Numbered from the stretch's first letter, positions 2,030 through 42,361 are shown. The stretch is 64,000 nucleotides of DNA from Desulfatiglandales bacterium (GCA_963662465.1 OY759599.1:4384001-4448000); one strand, 5' to 3'. Numbers and translations are program-made. The notes: generated by a model not told the origin, from the sequence alone.

Positions 2030-2239
2030 AATATCCGCGCTCAAAATCCAGTTTATATTCAAACCGGCACACTTTTCACGAAATTCTTTCAGCGCCGGGT
2101 AAGGAAACTTTTGGCTCTCCCAGGTAAGCGAAGACTCCGGGTTCCCGAGCTATCCATTTGAATCCATGCCCTGGTCTCAGACCCCGGTGGTGACCTCATT
2201 TACGCGGGTTCCCAAGGTTTCGGGCTTACCTCGGCGCGA
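2030..2239 (-). pseudogene. Multiply deleted remnant of a class E-like group II intron, inserted in an attC
   Basis: Three patches match the intron at 18525-22706: its 5' end (2198-2239), an internal RNA segment (2104-2197) and an RT fragment LKEFREKCAGLNINWILSADI (2030-2100). Confidence 0.8.
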
Positions 2240-2281
2240 GCAGCGTTGGGTTGGGTGATCTCCACAACACTTGATGAAACA

Positions 2282-5960: not shown

Positions 5961-7966
5961 CGCATAAGTCTAAATGTTGTGGGGTTGTATAACCCATCAA
6001 AATTAAAAGGCGTTTTCGGTAAACAAGAATGCATTATGAACATTCATAACTTGAATCCAAGGTAAGTCAAATGTTTGGCCGTTGGCTAATTCAAAGGGAC
6101 TTTTATGAGCATTTTTTGCGCCAGGTAAAAATGGGACAAAATTCCTGATAGTCGCATGTGCTCGAAAGAAAAGACTTGCCCATTTCTTATCTCGAAAACT
6201 CTCAATTTGTTTTAGTTTACGTTTGATTCCTTTTAAATAATTGTCAACAATGGAGGTTGTTTGTTTTATCCCATTTCTATTTTTATGAGAGGTATAATGA
6301 GTGGCATTTTCTTTTAATTCTACTACCCTCTTTTTTAGTAATGGATGAGAAAATGCATCGTCATCTAATGCCTTAATCTTTACTTCCAAGTTAACTTTAG
6401 ATGTGGATGTTTTCAAAACTTTCTTAAATTTTTTATAAAGCTTGTCCACTTCTTGGTCGGTACATTTTGATTCTTTTTGATATTTTGATAGTGCATCGTA
6501 GAAGTTTTTCAAACAATGACGATGGCAATATCCGACCCAAATGTTATGGAATACGGTCTTGATAGCATTGGTTGAGGCTTTCCACTTATCTTTTGTTACA
6601 CCAAGGATTTTGAAGTCGATTTTTTGCAAAAAATCCTCAAATGAACCGCACAGGTTTTCTTCATCAACATGATCAACATAATCGGAGTGCCATACTAATA
6701 AATTTTCAGGATCGACCATAACTACAGAATAAGTTCTTAAATTTGGTTCTTTTTCAAAGCCCTCATCTTCCTGTAGATATCCTGAGCCTTTCACTCCTGC
6801 TCTTGTTAGTATTGTTGCAGGATGAAGTGTTCCTGCCCATCGATTCCAGTTCAAGATGGTTTGTTTGCTTTTGACACTTTTTTTGCCAATAATTTTAAGG
6901 CTTTCGATGGCTCCTTGAATGCTCGCATTAAAACGGTACATATTCCGAAATACGTGCCCAATAATCTCTATACCAAAATTCTTTTCCCTTGGGAGAAAGC
7001 TGGGAACAAGAGAGAACTTTTGTTTGCACTTCCGGCATTGTATCATGCGGATTGGGAATGTCTGTTGTTCTCCTCCATTCATTATTGTTTTTCGAGGATT
7101 CCCGCGGAAACCAGATAAAATATATTCTTTAGGTCCAGAACATGTTGAATTATGGCCTGTGTGGTGATCATATTTATCGAGTTTATCTAATACTTCAATG
7201 CGAAACTTCTTACTATCTTTTACGAGAGCATGATAGCTTTCGGTGTTATTATAAGGAAAGATATATGTTTGATTTCCTCGTTTAGAAACAAGGTCTTCCA
7301 TTTTCTTTTTTACATTTTCGATTATGGATTTATCAAAAGATTTTAACATCCCTATCTCAAATGCAATACTTATTGTACTATCACGACTTTTTACATTATT
7401 CAATTTTTTAGTAATATTACTTATCATTGAACGAATTGAATAAAAGATTCTAATTTTCTGTCGATCCCGTTGTGTTTTTGGAATGCTTTTTTTCCCTTTT
7501 ATTGGCTTACAAATATCCCATAATTGACTTATTAACCTACCAAGTTCATCAATAAGAGCAGACAATGTTACATAAAAATATTGCAATGATTGAAACATCT
7601 CCCTTTCATTGATCCATGATCTGATGGCATTAATGCATTTCTCAATTTCAAAGAAAATCTCAGGATACTGTTTTGGATCGTAATAACATTGTCTTGCAAG
7701 TCTGTTTTGAGCTTTGTCCAACATTGTCAAAGCTCTCTTAATATTATTAATCATGTGCAACCTCTCTAATTTAACATAGACTGTTGCACTATGATTATGC
7801 ACACTTATCAAAAAAAGTCCCTAACTTTTTTCCGCTAAGGCGAATTCAGGAAAAAATGTTTGGCCTCACGAAATGCGCTTTGATTAGGATATTGATTCGG
7901 AACCGTTTAACAGATGAAATAATTTCAATATGTTAGAGTAAACCCCACAACATTTAGACTTATGCG
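5961..7966 (-). mobile_element. 2006-bp IS, full copy
   Basis: 26-bp terminal inverted repeats; flanks GATATATG and CAAAAAAC do not match, so there is no TSD. Confidence 0.92.
6003..7811 (-). CDS. DDE-type transposase (IS256/ISH6-like, family uncertain)
   Basis: Only long ORF between the IRs. CxxC finger, QEDE, TKDKW, CHRH and TTSIVDN motifs. Same protein as 20180-21988. Confidence 0.85.
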   Translation of the reverse strand: MISVHNHSATVYVKLERLHMINNIKRALTMLDKAQNRLARQCYYDPKQYPEIFFEIEKCINAIRSWINEREMFQSLQYFYVTLSALIDELGRLISQLWDICKPIKGKKSIPKTQRDRQKIRIFYSIRSMISNITKKLNNVKSRDSTISIAFEIGMLKSFDKSIIENVKKKMEDLVSKRGNQTYIFPYNNTESYHALVKDSKKFRIEVLDKLDKYDHHTGHNSTCSGPKEYILSGFRGNPRKTIMNGGEQQTFPIRMIQCRKCKQKFSLVPSFLPREKNFGIEIIGHVFRNMYRFNASIQGAIESLKIIGKKSVKSKQTILNWNRWAGTLHPATILTRAGVKGSGYLQEDEGFEKEPNLRTYSVVMVDPENLLVWHSDYVDHVDEENLCGSFEDFLQKIDFKILGVTKDKWKASTNAIKTVFHNIWVGYCHRHCLKNFYDALSKYQKESKCTDQEVDKLYKKFKKVLKTSTSKVNLEVKIKALDDDAFSHPLLKKRVVELKENATHYTSHKNRNGIKQTTSIVDNYLKGIKRKLKQIESFRDKKWASLFFRAHATIRNFVPFLPGAKNAHKSPFELANGQTFDLPWIQVMNVHNAFLFTENAF

Positions 7967-18107: not shown

Positions 18108-18335
18108 TTAAGCTTGGGCTTTATTTATGCGCTCTGCAATCCAGCTTTTGATTACGGATTGCGTCGCGATTCCAAGCCGCTTCGCTTCGCGATCGAGCAA
18201 TTCGATCATCCAGACCGGGAAGTCTACATTGATCCGCTTGTACTCGTGACCCGGACGGGTAGCCTTGGAGAAGTCGAGGTATTTGTCGACGTCTTCTCCA
18301 TCGTCAAACTTTTTGTCAAACTCCTTAGTCTTCAT
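18108..18335 (-). CDS. BrnA/CopG-like antitoxin
   Basis: EFDKKFDDGEDV...RINVDFPVWMI..LDREAKRLG...IKSWIAER. Confidence 0.85.
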   Translation of the reverse strand: MKTKEFDKKFDDGEDVDKYLDFSKATRPGHEYKRINVDFPVWMIELLDREAKRLGIATQSVIKSWIAERINKAQA

Positions 18336-18524
18336 ATCGTTCTATCTCCTTCGTACGTGAACGCCGGACGGAGATGATCCTTATTCTATCGCCGCGCGGT
18401 GTGAAAATCGCCGACCAATGCCTACTTCCGATTCGTCCGATCAACATGTAACGCGGTTCGCCTTGCGTGCGGGCAGGGACTTGCAGACGTTCTGGGTCCT
18501 CCCAGAGGGCTTGGGCCTCAACGA
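18325..18524 (-). pseudogene. 5'-truncated BrnT toxin fused in frame to an intron RT fragment
   Basis: FVEAQALWEDP...EPRYMLIG...IRIISVRRSR. Confidence 0.8.
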
Positions 18525-20137
18525 AGTTTATGTTCAAACCAGCACACTTTTCACGAAGTTCTTTCAGCGCCAGGTGTTGACTGTGACCCTCCCGAAATCC
18601 ATGGGAAACGTCATAAAACAAGGGCTCGTAAACCAGCCCCAGCAAAGCCGCCACCGCCTTCTGGACAATCTTGTCTTCCAGCGCCGGAATCCCTATCGGT
18701 CTCTTTTTACCGCCTTCCTTGTCCACCCATATGCGCTTGACCGGTGATGCAACGTACTGCCCTCTTCGCAGCCGTTCGTACAGTTTATAGAGGTTTTCAT
18801 TAAGATCGGCGGCATAGGTCTTCGCCGTTATCTTGTCAACTCCGGTCGACTCATTCTTACTCAAGCCCTTGAATGACTTTTTCAATAAATCAAAGTCTAT
18901 CCAATGCGCAAGTGATGTGAACACCGTTTGTGGATCGGCCATCCCCCGTATTGCTACCCGGGCAAGACTTGATTCACCGACCAGTACGGGGAGACCATGT
19001 GTACTCGGTTCTTCGGACTTCTGAGCAACCTGCTCCGCAATTTCCTGATTTTCCATTGATATGGGTTGTGACCTCTGAGTGTCTTCCATAGTTCCTATCA
19101 GAAAAACGTTATACCCTGCTTCACCTTCCCTACAGTGGGTCGCCTGGGCGTAACTTCCCCACCTTCCCGGCACCATCCTCGGCGCCATCGGTACTATGTT
19201 CCGCTAAGACTGCCAAAAGTCCCTCTCAAGCGCGTTCGCTTTTCGCTGTCCACACCTGATACCCTGTCTGCTTTCTTTCTTTGTGTTTCTTGCGACTCGT
19301 TTGCGGGTGAAAGCCTCCCGCTAACACCGGGGCTCTTGATCTCCCGGTACCCCTTGTCTTCCGGGTGTTTACACAAGGAGACTTTTGGCTCTCCCGAGTT
19401 CCCGAGCTATCCATTTGAATCCATGCCCTGGTCGTCGGGTAGAAATACGGCGCGCTCACCCTTAGGCAGAGAGTTTCCGTCTTGCACCCTTTCGGTTGTG
19501 CAGCGGGTTCCTAGTTCCGCCATAGCCAACGTTTCCGCAAGCCCCCCTCTCATCCCGGACGGTCGGATTTCCCGAGTCCGGTTGGCGGCCAGTGGTCTTC
19601 ATGTATTATCTCCGATACGCCTTCCCATATTACCGGAGGCTTAAGTACACGCCCACATACACCCCTCACTAATATGGTTTACTTATCGGATAGCCCGAGG
19701 CTCCGTTGACCAACTTTTACGGGCTCTGCGTCCCTTGTTTGGTGTCTTCCTTCCGGGCGACCACTGTACCGAGAGCCCCTTTGCCTTATCAGGGTATTAC
19801 CCCTCAAAGCGTCGCATTTACTGCGACATAGGCTGACATTACTCAACTCTCTTCGCTCATACGGGCTCATGCGCCGGACCAAACCCCTCTTGCTGCCTCG
19901 GCTTGTCACCTTGTGCAACACGTCTTCGCAGGTTGCTGCGTGCCCCTGCTGGGAGATGGCCCTTCCCGACGTTATCTCCTTAATCTTTATATGGGTGCCT
20001 GGACCCGTACCCCGCCGCGCTTCTCCGGTGCATTTGCTCGTTTCTTCCCGGAAAACATCGGCCTCACCTCAGTCTTAACAGGTTCGGCGCGCTGAAACCC
20101 CCACCGCATAGCAACTTCTACGATGGCCACCTTTTTC

Positions 20138-22143
20138 CGCATAAGTCTAAATGTTGTGGGGTTGTATAACCCATCAAAATTAAAAGGCGTTTTCGGTAAA
20201 CAAGAATGCATTATGAACATTCATAACTTGAATCCAAGGTAAGTCAAATGTTTGGCCGTTGGCTAATTCAAAGGGACTTTTATGAGCATTTTTTGCGCCA
20301 GGTAAAAATGGGACAAAATTCCTGATAGTCGCATGTGCTCGAAAGAAAAGACTTGCCCATTTCTTATCTCGAAAACTCTCAATTTGTTTTAGTTTACGTT
20401 TGATTCCTTTTAAATAATTGTCAACAATGGAGGTTGTTTGTTTTATCCCATTTCTATTTTTATGAGAGGTATAATGAGTGGCATTTTCTTTTAATTCTAC
20501 TACCCTCTTTTTTAGTAATGGATGAGAAAATGCATCGTCATCTAATGCCTTAATCTTTACTTCCAAGTTAACTTTAGATGTGGATGTTTTCAAAACTTTC
20601 TTAAATTTTTTATAAAGCTTGTCCACTTCTTGGTCGGTACATTTTGATTCTTTTTGATATTTTGATAGTGCATCGTAGAAGTTTTTCAAACAATGACGAT
20701 GGCAATATCCGACCCAAATGTTATGGAATACGGTCTTGATAGCATTGGTTGAGGCTTTCCACTTATCTTTTGTTACACCAAGGATTTTGAAGTCGATTTT
20801 TTGCAAAAAATCCTCAAATGAACCGCACAGGTTTTCTTCATCAACATGATCAACATAATCGGAGTGCCATACTAATAAATTTTCAGGATCGACCATAACT
20901 ACAGAATAAGTTCTTAAATTTGGTTCTTTTTCAAAGCCCTCATCTTCCTGTAGATATCCTGAGCCTTTCACTCCTGCTCTTGTTAGTATTGTTGCAGGAT
21001 GAAGTGTTCCTGCCCATCGATTCCAGTTCAAGATGGTCTGTTTGCTTTTGACACTTTTTTTGCCAATAATTTTAAGGCTTTCGATGGCTCCTTGAATGCT
21101 CGCATTAAAACGGTACATATTCCGAAATACGTGCCCAATAATCTCTATACCAAAATTCTTTTCCCTTGGGAGAAAGCTGGGAACAAGAGAGAACTTTTGT
21201 TTGCACTTCCGGCATTGTATCATGCGGATTGGGAATGTCTGTTGTTCTCCTCCATTCATTATTGTTTTTCGAGGATTCCCGCGGAAACCAGATAAAATAT
21301 ATTCTTTAGGTCCAGAACATGTTGAATTATGGCCTGTGTGGTGATCATATTTATCGAGTTTATCTAATACTTCAATGCGAAACTTCTTACTATCTTTTAC
21401 GAGAGCATGATAGCTTTCGGTGTTATTATAAGGAAAGATATATGTTTGATTTCCTCGTTTAGAAACAAGGTCTTCCATTTTCTTTTTTACATTTTCGATT
21501 ATGGATTTATCAAAAGATTTTAACATCCCTATCTCAAATGCAATACTGATTGTACTATCACGACTTTTTACATTATTCAATTTTTTAGTAATATTACTTA
21601 TCATTGAACGAATTGAATAAAAGATTCTAATTTTCTGTCGATCCCGTTGTGTTTTTGGAATGCTTTTTTTCCCTTTTATTGGCTTACAAATATCCCATAA
21701 TTGACTTATTAACCTACCAAGTTCATCAATAAGAGCAGACAATGTTACATAAAAATATTGCAATGATTGAAACATCTCCCTTTCATTGATCCATGATCTG
21801 ATGGCATTAATGCATTTCTCAATTTCAAAGAAAATCTCAGGATACTGTTTTGGATCGTAATAACATTGTCTTGCAAGTCTGTTTTGAGCTTTGTCCAACA
21901 TTGTCAAAGCTCTCTTAATATTATTAATCATGTGCAACCTCTCTAATTTAACATAGACTGTTGCACTATGATTATGCACACTTATCAAAAAAAGTCCCTA
22001 ACTTTTTTCCGCTAAGGCGAATTCAGGAAAAAATGTTTGGCCTCACGAAATGCGCTTTGATTAGGATATTGATTCTGAACCGTTTAACAGATGAAATAAT
22101 TTCAATATGTTAGAGTAAACCCCACAACATTTAGACTTATGCG
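20138..22143 (-). mobile_element. 2006-bp IS, full copy with 8-bp TSD
   Basis: 26-bp IRs; TSD CCTTTTTC at 20130-20137 and 22144-22151. Confidence 0.95.
20180..21988 (-). CDS. DDE-type transposase (same protein as 6003-7811)
   Basis: Identical 602-aa translation. Confidence 0.85.
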   Translation of the reverse strand: MISVHNHSATVYVKLERLHMINNIKRALTMLDKAQNRLARQCYYDPKQYPEIFFEIEKCINAIRSWINEREMFQSLQYFYVTLSALIDELGRLISQLWDICKPIKGKKSIPKTQRDRQKIRIFYSIRSMISNITKKLNNVKSRDSTISIAFEIGMLKSFDKSIIENVKKKMEDLVSKRGNQTYIFPYNNTESYHALVKDSKKFRIEVLDKLDKYDHHTGHNSTCSGPKEYILSGFRGNPRKTIMNGGEQQTFPIRMIQCRKCKQKFSLVPSFLPREKNFGIEIIGHVFRNMYRFNASIQGAIESLKIIGKKSVKSKQTILNWNRWAGTLHPATILTRAGVKGSGYLQEDEGFEKEPNLRTYSVVMVDPENLLVWHSDYVDHVDEENLCGSFEDFLQKIDFKILGVTKDKWKASTNAIKTVFHNIWVGYCHRHCLKNFYDALSKYQKESKCTDQEVDKLYKKFKKVLKTSTSKVNLEVKIKALDDDAFSHPLLKKRVVELKENATHYTSHKNRNGIKQTTSIVDNYLKGIKRKLKQIESFRDKKWASLFFRAHATIRNFVPFLPGAKNAHKSPFELANGQTFDLPWIQVMNVHNAFLFTENAF

Positions 22144-23089
22144 CCTTTTTCGAGGCTGCAGTCATTCCTTTATGTTCAAGCTCCCATACTTGCTAGGCCC
22201 CCAGGTTGCACCCACCGCTGGAGATCAACTTCTCCAGGGCGGCCGGGCCGTTTACACCACGCAATGGACATGAGGTTACCCTTCATGAACTGTGGTATCG
22301 CTACACACTCGAATCGAGCAATTAGTATGACGGAACTTTCACCCGCTAGATTAAGGCCTTGTCGGCCGCTACCTAAGACCCCGGTGGCAACCTCAACACT
22401 CGCCATGGCGCATCAAGGTTTGCTGCCTTCCGCTTGCTCCAAAGCGTCGGCTTTCTCCCACATTTGTAGGATTATCCAATGACCACAACTATACATTTTT
22501 CGGGGCTCAATACACGTCCTGGATTCTCGTTCCGTCCAGCTCCATACGCCGGTTACCCGGTTTGCACGTGGACTTCACTACCGAACTGGTGGCTAACCTT
22601 TGCTCGGGTGGGACTTTCGCTTTCCGCGATCACCCACTGGATAACAATAACCAATTTCATCCCGATTTACGCGGGTTCCCAAGGTTTCGGGCTTACCTCG
22701 GCGCGAGCAGCGTTTGCTTCGCCACTGTGGACGATCCTAAGTATACGGAATTTCGGCGAAAACAACTGCACCTTTCCAGATTGATAATGCCTTATTTTCT
22801 TTGGGAACTCGGTTTGATTTTCGTGTTTCCACGAAATGCCTTAGGATCATATCAATTTCGAATTCCCACCATTAAATGAAAAAAACTTCCTTTTTGATTC
22901 TCCCCCGCACTTCAGGTTGCTTTTATGTTTTTGTCATTCCTTTCTTAGATGCTGGGTACATTCTTACCTACTGGGGACATCCTTTTCTTTGTAAATGGGT
23001 TAGATTATGTCCTAAATTTTGACCGTCCTTATAAGGCAATCGACTGAAATTTCAGTGAAAGATGTCGTCGCAAAAGAGTTGCGCCCATT

Positions 23090-23464
23090 TCAAATAACAG
23101 CTTTAAACTCTATTTTTTCATCTCCAAATGTCGATTCAACCACTTTATGCATCCCATGTCCGGGATTTCGCTCTTTGAAGGTTTTAATCAACTGGTATTT
23201 AGACAATAATTTCAAATCATTATTGAGACTTACAGGTGTACGCTGCATTACCGACATAAGTTCAGAGAATATGACTTTTTTCTTTTTCCTCAAATATTGG
23301 ATCAGCTTGGTTCTCTCTGGTTTTAGTATGGCCATTAAGTCTGAAGGAGCAACCCATATTATATTTTTTGGAGTTAATTTACGGCCCTCATCAATTTCTT
23401 TTGCTGTTTCTTTTGCTGAAACAAAAAAATCAGAAAGATCCCCTGTCTTTATCTCGAGCGTCAT
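23090..23464 (-). CDS. HTH antitoxin-like protein (HVO_A0114/TumA-like)
   Basis: LKPERTKLI...SELM..MQR...NNDLKLL HTH; ATGA-coupled to the upstream toxin-like gene. Confidence 0.65.
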   Translation of the reverse strand: MTLEIKTGDLSDFFVSAKETAKEIDEGRKLTPKNIIWVAPSDLMAILKPERTKLIQYLRKKKKVIFSELMSVMQRTPVSLNNDLKLLSKYQLIKTFKERNPGHGMHKVVESTFGDEKIEFKAVI

Positions 23465-23778
23465 TTTATGAACTCCCTTACTTCTTTTTCAAATCTTTCT
23501 ACAAGTTCCCGATAACTTATAAATTTTTCAACCTCAGATATTTCTCCAAAGTAGTGCTTATGGTGGAAATTATGAGTATTGTCATAGCCTAAAACCCTGC
23601 CATTATCTCCAGAGAAAATAAGATGATTGATATAGGCCATGCTGTATTTTACTATTTCGCCCTGTTCATTCTCCCATGCATCAATTTTGACAAGTCCTCC
23701 CCCTCTTTTGGGATTTATGGAGAATTGTTCAGATACAACTTTTTTGAACTTGGTTTTGCCCGTTCGTTTGGATTTCAT
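23461..23778 (-). CDS. DUF6516/TumE-like toxin
   Basis: KYSMAY...RVLGYDNTHNFHHKH motif. Confidence 0.7.
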   Translation of the reverse strand: MKSKRTGKTKFKKVVSEQFSINPKRGGGLVKIDAWENEQGEIVKYSMAYINHLIFSGDNGRVLGYDNTHNFHHKHYFGEISEVEKFISYRELVERFEKEVREFIK

Positions 23779-23849: not shown

Positions 23850-26075
23850 GTCGAGTAGCCAGGGGATGTTGCCATCCCCCAGCCCTCTAAGAACCGTGCG
23901 TGCGCCGTTAAACGCACACGGCTCAAGCATTCCAAAGGCAAGCCCTTTCGGGGCTACCCGGTTGTGACGTTTTATGCTCTTTACGCCTGTCTGCCTTCTG
24001 CTGACTGCGTTGGGCATATCGTTTCCTGAAATAGTGTTCATATTTCGGATCGAAGGGGTTCGCATCCCCTCGAATTTTGACATGGCGTTTTATCTTGACG
24101 TCGTAAGCTTTCTCAAGTTCAATTCTAGCGGATTTCGCATAGCCGTCCTTGATCACCGCTGAAAAGGACCACGGACGAGATCCTTTTGACCAGTATTTAT
24201 CCACCAGCCAACTCTTACTCTTGCCCGAATGTTTCCTCCTCATCCATTGCCAAATATAGCTGTAGATACGGTGATCTACAAGCCCGAAAGTTCTACCGGA
24301 AACCACATGCCTGTGGTAATTGGCCCATCCCCTGATTTTGGGATTGAGCACTTTAATCAGGGTGTCGGCTCTTGATGCCGCATGCTTTCGGATCGTTTGC
24401 CGGATATTGCCTAAGAAGGCTTTCACGTTTTTACGAGAGGGCTTTATCAAGAGCTTCCCCTGGTATTTGCGTGGATTCTGTCCGAGAAAATCAAATCCTT
24501 CTTCTATCCTTGTGATCAACGTCTTTTCCGCTGAAAGCGAAAGTCCTCTTCGCTCCATAAATGCTTCAATTTCCAGCTTGATCTCATTTAGCATCTCTCT
24601 GGAATTCCCGGTGATGATGAAATCATCAGCGTAACGGATTACGTTTATCTTGGACCGTATATTGCCCTGGATTCTTATCGGGGCGGTACTTTTGGCTGCC
24701 GCTTCCAGACCATCCAGGACCATATTAGCCAATGTTGGAGAGATAATCCCGCCTTGCGGGGTTCCTCTGTAAGTCGGATAGAGCTTGCCTCCTTCCACAT
24801 AACCGGATTTCAGCCATTTCTGAAGCGTCCGTTTATCCATGGGGATATTTTCGAGCATCCATTGATGGCTGATTTCGTCAAAACAGGCCTTTATGTCTCC
24901 CTCCAAAATCCATGCGGGTGAGTAGCTCTTGGCCAGAGAAATAAAACAATGACCGATGGCATCCGCACATCCTCGATAGGCTCTGAACCCATAAGAGTTC
25001 GGATCGGCGGTGGTTTCCGCCACCGGATCAAGGGCCAGTTTGTGCAACGCCTGCATGGCTCTGTCTTTCATGGTGGGAATGCCCAATGGGCGTTTCTTGC
25101 CGTTTTTCTTGGGTATGTAAATTCGGCGCAGCGGTTTGGGTCGGTAAGTTCTTCGGTGCAGGTCTTTTGCCGCCTGCATTTTGTCAATGTGGGTGGACCA
25201 TATAACTTTATCCACTCCCGGCGTGCGTTTACCTCGGTTGGAAGTAACGCGCTTGATGGCCAACAACTTGGCATAAAACGAATGGGTCAAAAGCCATTGT
25301 ATTGCCTTAACCTTTCCCCATCGCTTTTCCTTCACAGCCTTTGCGATACGCACCTGCAGTCTTCTAACGTGCTCGCCGGCGGTTCTCCAGTTTATGGATT
25401 TCCACCAGTTTGTTCCGTCCAAAGGTGCACCAGTCGCCAAAATGGCCACCGTCATTTGCTTTCCCCTGTTTGAAGATTCTACAAATTATCTCGCAATGGA
25501 ACACCGGTCAGAAGTCTGCTCTCTTTCGAGCCGGATCATGTAGGTGATTACACCGTCAATCCGTATCCCCATCATTACAACGGGGCATTTGCTTTTTTCT
25601 GACATCCTTTACCCGCAACCCCATGGGCTCACCTTGCGGTTCGCTTTCCCCGTGGGGAGGATTACGGGCTTACCATGTTCCGCGTAAGTACCCGAGCAGG
25701 TTAGGTTCCGCCCGTACGCCGGTGGCACGACATCCGCGATGGAGGAGTTCGCAGCCCCCATACCTGGCCACATACCGTTTGGTCCAAGCCTTTCAGCATC
25801 TTAGGCTTGTTCTCGTGACGACGCTGCAGCGATTCACATGTGTTAACCATACTGCTCAATTCTAGCTCCCTTACCGCATGATGCTTGCAGAGTTGAGGTC
25901 TCCTCACGGTTCCCTCTCCCGGAAGATTCCGCGGGCTTCATTGTCCCGAGAGCTTCACACCCCCGGATTACTCCGGACGCATGTCCCGGTAGAATACCTG
26001 TTGCAGAAAACAGGGTTTTGTTATATGGTTTATATCAATATACAAAACAGCTACTTACGCGACATCACGTCGCAC
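23850..26075 (-). mobile_element. Complete group IIB (chloroplast-like class) intron inserted in an attC R' core
   Basis: 5' GTGCG at 26075; DV GAGCCGTGTGCG...CGCACGCACGGTTC; DVI ending TACTCGAC at 23850; EBS1 and EBS2 match the 5' exon. Confidence 0.93.
23923..25455 (-). CDS. ltrA: Group II intron reverse transcriptase/maturase, with no HNH domain evident
   Basis: RVT_N-type W..INW...VRRLQ.RIAKA; RPLGIPT, GTPQGG, RYADDF, GFDFLG; maturase LNPKIRGWANY. Confidence 0.93.
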   Translation of the reverse strand: MTVAILATGAPLDGTNWWKSINWRTAGEHVRRLQVRIAKAVKEKRWGKVKAIQWLLTHSFYAKLLAIKRVTSNRGKRTPGVDKVIWSTHIDKMQAAKDLHRRTYRPKPLRRIYIPKKNGKKRPLGIPTMKDRAMQALHKLALDPVAETTADPNSYGFRAYRGCADAIGHCFISLAKSYSPAWILEGDIKACFDEISHQWMLENIPMDKRTLQKWLKSGYVEGGKLYPTYRGTPQGGIISPTLANMVLDGLEAAAKSTAPIRIQGNIRSKINVIRYADDFIITGNSREMLNEIKLEIEAFMERRGLSLSAEKTLITRIEEGFDFLGQNPRKYQGKLLIKPSRKNVKAFLGNIRQTIRKHAASRADTLIKVLNPKIRGWANYHRHVVSGRTFGLVDHRIYSYIWQWMRRKHSGKSKSWLVDKYWSKGSRPWSFSAVIKDGYAKSARIELEKAYDVKIKRHVKIRGDANPFDPKYEHYFRKRYAQRSQQKADRRKEHKTSQPGSPERACLWNA

Positions 26076-26161
26076 GCGAACGACAAGCTCACCAGCGCCT
26101 CCTCCGGGCCCCCGCCGGAACCGCCCAAGTATCAGGCGTCTGGTGCAGCGTTTGGTTCGCA
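26076..26161 (-). other. attC of the DUF1566 cassette
   Basis: TGCGAAC-CAAACGCTGCACCAGACGCC...GGCGCTGGTGAGCTTGTC-GTTCGC|C. Confidence 0.88.
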
Positions 26162-41328: not shown

Positions 41329-41358
41329 TTGACTTTTCCATCTATTGCGCAATATCGT
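41329..41358 (+). promoter_or_regulatory. Possible intI promoter
   Basis: TTGACT-N18-TATCGT just upstream of ATG 41366. Confidence 0.3.
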
Positions 41359-41365
41359 CAATAGC

Positions 41366-42361
41366 ATGGAAAAATCGAAAAAATTCCGACCGGATCCCAA
41401 ACTTCGTCTTATGGATCAGGTTCGACAAGTTCTACGCTATCACCACTACGCCTATCGCACAGAACAAACTTATTGCGATTGGATCATGCGCTATATCCGG
41501 TACCATGGGAGCAATACCCATCCTCGGAATATGGGTAAGAAAGAAATCGAAGCCTTTCTGTCCCATTTGGCGGTTCAACAACACGTTGCCGCCTCCACCC
41601 AGCGCCAAGCTCTTAATGCGATTATTTTCCTATACAAAAGAGTCCTTGATATTCCGGTTGACGAAGATCTTGACCCTGTCCGCGCCAAAAGACGCTCCCG
41701 CCCCCCGGTTGTCATGAGCCAACGGGAGGTTTCCATTGTTTTGGAACACATGCACGGTTTGCATCTCCTCATGGCGAAAATCCTGTACGGCAGCGGCCTG
41801 CGGTTAATGGAGTGCATCCGACTCCGTATTCGCGATCTTGATTTTGAACGCGGGCTTATTTACGTTCGAGCCGCAAAAGGCGGTAAGGACCGTACCACCC
41901 TTTTTCCGGAATCCCTCCACTCCCTCATGAAAAATCAGGTTGAAGCGGTTGAAAAACTTCATCGGCAGGACCTGGCGGATGGATATGGGGATGTTTATCT
42001 TCCAAACGCCCTTGCCCGCAAATACCCCAATGCCGCCAAATCCCTGGGTTGGCAATATGTATTTCCCTCAAAAAAACGCAGCAAGGATCCCCGATCAGGT
42101 AAAACAATGCGGCATCATGTTCTTGAATCCGGGCTCCAAAAAGCCGTGAAGGCCGCTGTTGGAAAGGCGGGACTTACAAAACCCGTCGGTTGTCATACCT
42201 TTCGCCATTCTTTTGCAACGCATTTGCTTGAAAACGGGGTGAACATTCGGGTGGTTCAGGAATTGTTGGGCCATGCGGATGTGAAGACCACCGAGATCTA
42301 CACCCACGTAATGGAAAAGGACATTTCCGTGGTTCGAAGTCCTTTGGATGGGCTTTTGTGA
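41366..42361 (+). CDS. intI: Integron integrase
   Basis: HYAYRTEQTY, ASTQRQAL, YGSGLR, KGGKDR; IntI-specific patch VYLPNALARKYPNA...WQYVFPS; HTFRHSFATHLL, LGHADVKTTEIYTH. Confidence 0.97.
   Translation: MEKSKKFRPDPKLRLMDQVRQVLRYHHYAYRTEQTYCDWIMRYIRYHGSNTHPRNMGKKEIEAFLSHLAVQQHVAASTQRQALNAIIFLYKRVLDIPVDEDLDPVRAKRRSRPPVVMSQREVSIVLEHMHGLHLLMAKILYGSGLRLMECIRLRIRDLDFERGLIYVRAAKGGKDRTTLFPESLHSLMKNQVEAVEKLHRQDLADGYGDVYLPNALARKYPNAAKSLGWQYVFPSKKRSKDPRSGKTMRHHVLESGLQKAVKAAVGKAGLTKPVGCHTFRHSFATHLLENGVNIRVVQELLGHADVKTTEIYTHVMEKDISVVRSPLDGLL

Follow-up and report, generated by a model that had tools for sequence, protein, structure and literature searches.

An endonuclease-less CL/IIB1 group II intron with the 3′ end of integron attC sites as its probable homing site

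A 64,000-nt stretch of the 8.16-Mb genome (G000) of a Desulfatiglandales bacterium (GCA_963662465.1 OY759599.1:4384001-4448000; ‘the window’ below) contains a complete group II intron lodged inside an attC site of an integron array. We propose, with a probability of about 0.8, that it represents a mobile group II intron of the CL/IIB1 lineage which lacks an endonuclease (En) domain and for which the 3′ end of integron attC sites serves as homing site. The intron and the site that it occupies comprise the following features, in window coordinates.

23850-26075, minus strand: complete group II intron (family A), 2,226 nt, 5′ GUGCG ... 3′ AC, with Rfam matches
25866-26015, minus strand: domain I core, Rfam RF02012 group-II-D1D4-7, 122.5 bits (gathering 34)
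25747-25752, minus strand: exon-binding site 1 (EBS1) GCGAAC, intron nt 324-329, in the 9-nt terminal loop of domain I
25805-25810, minus strand: ACAAGC, proposed EBS2, complementary to GCTTGT of L′ and overlapping a conserved helix
23923-25455, minus strand: intron-encoded reverse transcriptase (RT)/maturase, 510 aa, YADD present; RVT_N, RVT_1, GIIM
23850-23926, minus strand: domains V and VI, Rfam RF00029, 55 bits (gathering 40)
26076-26161, minus strand: attC up to the insertion point, with R″ (T)GCGAAC at 26161-26155, L″, a variable centre, L′ with GCTTGT at 26088-26083 and the start of R′, GTTCGC, at 26081-26076
23849, minus strand: first base of the 3′ exon, C, which is the seventh base of R′ and the candidate intron-binding site 3 (IBS3); C follows 5/10 complete 3′ ends

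Reading along the minus strand, the intron begins with GTGCG at 26075 and ends with CTCGAC at 23850, in agreement with the group II boundaries 5′ GUGYG and 3′ AY; two more full copies in the genome are 100% identical to it and two others 97%. Its RT passes the TIGR04416 group II RT/maturase equivalog cut-off (362.4 bits, cut-off 300). Placement in CL/IIB1 is by bit score against solved RT structures, among which the T.el4h RT (6me0_C) is nearest by far, at 568 bits compared with 144 for LtrA and 109–114 for IIC RTs, in keeping with the group IIB assignment made in the first-pass annotation of this DNA. That annotation had also remarked on an RT without HNH: a domain search of the protein found neither HNH nor any other nuclease family, and the alignment spans residues 12–484 of the 562-aa T.el4h RT, stopping before its C-terminal En part. 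EcI5, a CL/IIB1 intron, has an En domain in its intron-encoded protein (IEP). The CL/IIB1 IEPs of the TeI4 introns, of 561 aa, are likewise described with one (extracts of PMC2882425). Given that the RT match ends at residue 484 and that HNH is missing, the intron is a CL/IIB1-type element that has lost En.

The array is defined by an integron integrase, beside which an attI-side junction, GTTGGA, can be read from the sequence; the cassette downstream of the intron encodes a toxin–antitoxin (TA) pair.

41345-42361, plus strand: integron integrase, TIGR02249, 445.7 bits (cut-off 265)
23461-23778, minus strand: TumE-family toxin
23090-23464, minus strand: HVO_A0114-like partner of the TumE toxin

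With the integrase on the plus strand, the cassettes extend leftwards along the minus strand, which places the intron in cassette sense. Its 5′ exon (26076-26161) is an imperfect palindrome that starts with (T)GCGAAC and ends with GTTCGC, the base between GCTTGT and GTTCGC being C (26082). The insertion separates base 6 of the R′ core from base 7 (GTTCGC|C) and leaves the 6-bp R″/R′ pairing intact. The canonical attC crossover is at G|TT. As the insertion lies five bases 3′ of this point, the intron should by geometry belong to the downstream TumE/antitoxin cassette, much as had first been proposed.

The palindromes at the intron junctions are integron attC sites. An nhmmer profile derived from the ten palindromes located 5′ of intron copies found 56 sites in the genome, arranged in arrays beside four full-length and one partial integron integrases and always in the expected orientation; the alignment shows inverted cores (AAC ... 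GTT), an imperfect palindrome and an extra base on the 5′ arm, and other members of the family have the 3′ cores GTTGGAC, GTTAGCC and GTTAACC. It is on array clustering near integrases, orientation and 3′ core sequence that the identification rests. Were the palindromes another family of repeats, the link with integrons would be spurious; GCGAAC/GTTCGC does depart from RYYYAAC/GTTRRRY at variable positions, and the sites were called by our own profile, not by a dedicated attC caller. With the extra base in place, and with 56 correctly oriented copies beside four full-length integrases, this is very improbable indeed.

As is characteristic of CL/IIB1 introns, a 6-nt EBS1 in a terminal loop of domain I pairs with the last six exon bases: GCGAAC is complementary to GTTCGC of R′ at 6/6 positions, and both minimum free energy (MFE) and centroid folds predict an ATGGGGG/CCTCCAT hairpin closing the loop. 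The coordinates, the 5′ exon end GCTTGT-C-GTTCGC, the hairpin loop and the 12/12 complementarity (EBS1 plus the proposed EBS2) given in the first-pass annotation were all confirmed by the sequence, and the covariation of EBS with attC, for which it had suggested a test, holds for EBS1 and R′ within the genome, between genomes, in metagenomes and on permutation. Within the genome, a second family (B; 5′ end UUGCG), with one intact 494-aa RT (54% identical) and eight copies lacking a full open reading frame (ORF), fills 8–9 further attC sites at the same point of R′ as family A; its EBS1 variants GCUAAC, GUCAAC and CUCGAA match the exons GTTAGC/GTTGGC, GTTGGC and TTCGAG, respectively. Another genome, G105, has four ORF-less copies ~90% identical to family A in another attC family, where the EBS1 loop [CU]UUAAC pairs at 5/6 positions with three of the four exons (GTTAAT, GTTAGA and TTTAAA). 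In G165 and G166, two genomes from another family of the order whose introns have RTs 52–55% identical and the 5′ end UUGCG, 7 of the 9 mapped 5′ ends (12 in all) follow CGTT[AG]N(G), and the EBS1 loop is CUAACG.

Metagenome contigs scanned with the intron 5′ motif yielded 17 loci. In fourteen of these the intron comes after an attC-like palindrome whose last bases are GTTRR(N), the terminal GTT pairing with an AAC 49–81 nt upstream in 9 of the 13 foldable exons (three of the nine represent the same site). At three other loci the insertion comes after an internal hairpin, 40–50 nt past an RYYYAAC motif, and there too the EBS1 loops fit their exons (CCAAGA/TCTTGG, CGAAGA/TCTTCG). For the data as a whole, 24 of 49 unique intron/exon pairs were fully paired (one G-U allowed), compared with 6.8 on average, and never more than 13, over 500 shufflings of exons among introns, with two short loci excluded and one out-of-register family B row counted as a miss. 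EBS1–IBS1 pairing is thus far beyond chance. Comparison shows that the loop reads the R′ core by base pairing and that it changes with the R′ core of the host attC family.

Target use across the genome points the same way. G000 holds 12 5′ ends of the family A intron, and 10 of them lie at the same base of different attC sites, whose centres differ and whose 3′ exons, among complete copies, differ from the first or second base; of the remaining two, one directly follows another copy in tandem and the other lies at a non-attC site ending GTTCGT. Together with 7/9 in G165/G166 and 14/17 in the metagenomes, these counts place relatives mostly at attC; the situation that would have spoken against the first-pass annotation, homologs of the same EBS mainly outside such sites, was not what we found. 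When 55 attC sites were scored against GCTTGT-N-GTTCGC (one match without a 3′ end was dropped), family A occupied 3/3 sites matching at 12/12 positions, 6/13 at 11/12, 0/11 at 10/12, 1/19 at 9/12 and 0/9 with fewer; 9/16 sites with at least 11 matches were filled, as opposed to 1/39 others (Fisher p = 1.6e-5). The perfect 13-mer target occurs three times in 8.16 Mb and is filled 3/3 times. Among attC sites with GTTCGC, 5/9 were filled, the four empty ones continuing with A, G, T and G; the +1 C of the 3′ exon probably also counts in target choice. A single original insertion might instead have been spread passively, by IntI cassette shuffling or array duplication: an intron 3′ of the crossover moves with its cassette, and three of the G105 copies have an upstream cassette in common. 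We consider this quite improbable, as every complete copy in G000 has a distinct 3′ exon and attC centres differ too, occupancy tracks the EBS/IBS match, and the EBS1 of other genomes varies with the local R′.

In six family A copies the RT ORF contains an insertion of ~300 nt, which shows up as a gap when the copies are aligned. These six include two (G000:C1:3337135 and 3345271) that start with AUGCG, not GUGCG, and lie at different attC sites with different 3′ exons. Introns are stacked at one attC between G000:C1:3329531 and ~3336500, where a family A copy, a second family A copy and a family B copy directly abut, in that order; at G000 6780713, yet another intron-like 5′ end (GUGCGAUAC) comes immediately after a family A copy.

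Several points weigh against the proposal that attC is the homing site. Intron copies within one array are not independent events, nor are three of the four copies in G105, which share an upstream cassette. The attC profile was built from the occupied sites themselves. One family A copy sits outside attC, with a match to IBS1 only, and IBS1 is mismatched at one position in 5 of the 10 attC sites that are occupied; EBS3 of the family A intron was not located. No exon–exon joint was seen over 23000-26700 in contigs of four public runs, which as contigs cannot show absence and which yielded nothing usable on strand or level, and the AUGCG start of two copies should hamper their splicing. Lastly, TCGTTCGC occurs 125 times in the genome with only 5 occurrences filled, and CGTTCGCC 159 times with none filled. 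These numbers require a determinant beyond IBS1 and IBS3, which may be pairing of ACAAGC with L′, attC structure or the single-strandedness of attC; that IBS1 is insufficient is itself a mark against the simplest form of the proposal.

Pairing of GCGAAC with R′ and of ACAAGC with L′ would amount to classical 12-bp IIB recognition of the attC arm. Of the match claimed in the first-pass annotation between both EBS elements and R′ and L′, the EBS1 part stands; ACAAGC as a functional EBS2 is doubtful (about one chance in three). In its favour, ACAAGC is complementary to GCTTGT at 6/6 positions, at the classical distance and one base from IBS1; in family B, ACAAGC occupies precisely the canonical EBS2 position, with 2 nt between it and the d2b-like helix that follows; IBS1 is not enough to account for specificity; and attC sites with GTTCGC are filled in 3/3 cases if GCTTGT is perfect and in 2/6 if it is not. 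The doubt arises because five of the six bases in family A belong to a d2b-like helix (CAAGCC/GGCUUG) where compensatory base changes are seen among relatives (CAGGCC/GGCCUG, GAAGCC/GGCUUU), and because ACAAGCC is invariant in relatives whose exons lack GCTTGT, including the G105 copies, which have no IBS2 match. Neither is GCTTGT commoner where sites are filled (7/10, against 28/45 others), and in a related lineage, that of genome G106, the EBS2 that covaries is placed further 5′. Considered by itself, the match of ACAAGC to GCTTGT may be due to chance, and twelve-base recognition as a whole is a tentative proposition, with the odds clearly against it. A different candidate at the canonical EBS2 position, CACGAG (2 nt before the helix), pairs at 6/7 positions with CTGGTGA eight bases further 5′; it was rejected, since a 100% identical copy at G000 6782939 follows CCGCTGA.

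Recognition might alternatively be of a IIC-like kind, in which a short EBS1 pairing (perhaps with EBS3) is combined with an attC hairpin or single-strandedness and EBS2 plays no part. This would account for the empty 8-nt IBS1(+IBS3) matches outside attC, for the missing En domain, for the ectopic copy that matches by IBS1 only and for the unchanged d2 region of relatives in unrelated attC families. It is harder to reconcile with the folded top-strand hairpin, in which R′ pairs with R″ and is not free for EBS1, and with the clear EBS2/IBS2 covariation of the G106 lineage (AGCGAC/GTCGCT and AACGAC/GTCGTT); we think it plausible, if somewhat short of even odds.

Under the proposed attC homing, the intron would be transcribed in cassette sense and would splice with the help of its RT/maturase, and a lariat ribonucleoprotein would reverse-splice into the attC top strand, all as might be expected from the family; EBS1, on the comparisons above, would guide it there, inside R′. 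Without an En domain, cDNA priming would have to come from host replication. RmInt1 and En-deficient Ll.LtrB retrohome without second-strand cleavage, primed by nascent strands of the replication fork; these belong to other lineages and have no known link with attC. Because the intron sits 5 nt 3′ of the crossover, with the 6-bp R″/R′ pairing preserved, attC should stay usable, with the intron travelling as the leader of the downstream cassette, and arrays would offer many targets that are non-coding and horizontally mobile.

GC skew places the origin near 5.74 Mb and the terminus near 1.78 Mb, in agreement with a weak gene-strand bias. A lagging-strand template was expected for the intron sense strand; by GC skew, however, it lies on the leading-strand template in 11/12 family A copies (6/7 loci). 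As this placement mirrors array orientation, it does not decide the mode of priming. For most of the 56 attC sites (arrays at 3.29–3.35 Mb and 6.73–6.79 Mb), GC skew makes the bottom strand the lagging-strand template, so that the arrays are head-on to replication. The replication orientation described for Vibrio chromosomal integrons is the opposite.

Relatives were few, both when domain I DNA was searched against 105 genomes of the family (only three, all weak) and in a peptide-pattern scan of genome contigs (only 9 loci). The G106 lineage (L022–L025, L030–L058; 24 matches), with RTs 50% identical to that of family A, is inserted inside attC in sense orientation, 14 nt after the AAC of R″, and in 3 of the 4 loci examined the rest of attC follows the intron 3′ end. 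Its EBS1 variants CCGCUU and CACAAU match their exons. Junctions elsewhere in attC imply that related introns read different parts of the attC top strand. Some G106 copies are nested in other introns.

We lean, by a small measure, towards a wider reading in which an entire clade of En-less CL/IIB1 introns would be integron specialists, with reprogrammable pairing directed at different stretches of the attC top strand. Families A and B, G165/G166 and most of the metagenome relatives would read the R′ core; G106 and three metagenome loci would read the L″ arm or the centre. This specialisation would constitute a second, independent invention of attC homing, one whose logic differs from that of IIC-attC. 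Since all lie in cassette sense, the introns of such a clade would splice from cassette transcripts, keep attC usable, stack, and move between genomes with cassettes.

Comparisons with known systems refer to extracts of the papers cited. IIC-attC introns (S.ma.I2 and relatives) are, like family A, En-less group II introns that home to attC; they are of class C and insert into the bottom strand, antisense, at R″ (TTGT/T), using a hairpin and a 3–4 bp IBS1 (PMC7923331, PMC4424553), and class C introns are the only ones for which a review lists attC homing (PMC4424553). Family A differs from them in having a CL/IIB1 rather than a class C RT, top-strand insertion in cassette sense inside R′, and a 6-bp EBS1. 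The distinction from IIC-attC drawn in the first-pass annotation, which had called this a second attC-targeting mode, holds, but this is not the first non-IIC case. An association of a IIB intron with attC was already known from one example, UHB.I2, a IIB1/CL1 intron with 5′ UUGCG that lies in cassette sense ‘immediately after’ an attC in an integron from a soda-lake metagenome (Sonbol & Siam 2021, PMC7923331); that study describes one complete intron and two fragments (class E fragments), reports no exon conservation and speculates on a role for the hairpin. Compared by description only, UHB.I2 resembles the present introns in lineage, En-minus IEP, cassette orientation and position directly after attC, and shares its UUGCG end with family B and the G165/G166 relatives; no attC/EBS pairing is given for it, whereas family A has a junction in R′, many copies, saturation and EBS1 covariation. 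In the literature searched we found no EBS pairing of a non-IIC intron with attC beyond that article, whose supplements, which may detail the junction, lay outside the search. The TeI4/TeI3 introns of Thermosynechococcus (PMC2882425; 6me0) are also CL/IIB1, include the nearest solved RT and have proliferated in one genome by EBS divergence, with ORF-less derivatives and insertion into other introns, and the EBS2 of TeI4h is not readable from its structure (Mohr et al. 2010, PMC2882425); unlike that of family A, the TeI4 IEPs have retained the En domain, and they target sites other than attC.

What is new here is the exact junction inside R′, the pairing logic with its covariation, target saturation, and spread over lineages, genomes and metagenomes. 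A 6-nt guide loop reading the R′ core, 3′ of the IntI crossover, makes testable the reason for the link between IIB introns and integrons, which Sonbol & Siam had left unexplained. If the proposal is correct, a second class of introns would have in integron arrays landing pads that are safe, that multiply and that move horizontally; the introns would join cassettes and could shape arrays by stacking, by means of internal promoters and by the homology that they create between sites; and the lineage would be a natural base-pairing guide aimed at integron sites.

A neighbouring intron in the same array, of a third family, was compared with the claim that it is of the IIC-attC type.

22170 to ~22716, minus strand: third-family intron, with Rfam D1D4-6 at 22369-22617
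20180-21988 and 18325-19188: regions associated with the third-family intron, with a 602-aa DUF6431 ORF in between

It gives an additional, sub-threshold match to D1D4-4 (41.6 bits, gathering 49), and an Rfam search found no domain V downstream of it. Third-family introns lie in sense orientation and split attC after the start of L″, the rest of attC directly following the 3′ end of a full copy elsewhere in G000; the RT fragment is nearest LtrA (77 bits), not IIC RTs. Given the sense orientation, the L″ site and the LtrA-like RT, the neighbouring intron is not IIC-attC, and the claim fails. A 287-aa ORF fuses the first ~120 residues of its RT to a BrnT toxin domain. The 602-aa DUF6431 ORF recurs at window 6003-7811, and a 50-nt fragment identical to the third-family 5′ end (2198-2247, minus strand) follows a partial attC arm near a BrnT toxin gene at 1739-2062.

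Between 28723 and 41185, the window carries eight identical 399-aa ORFs for an IS91-family transposase (Y2_Tnp + Zn_Tnp_IS91), all on the minus strand, spaced at 1,609 bp and adjoining attI/intI. A rolling-circle tandem, a cassette-like amplification and an assembly artefact are each possible explanations of the repeat. At the attI-side site the unit begins directly behind GTTGGA (junction ~41228); elsewhere in G000, the start sequence of the unit is also found behind three attC sites and behind one intron copy.

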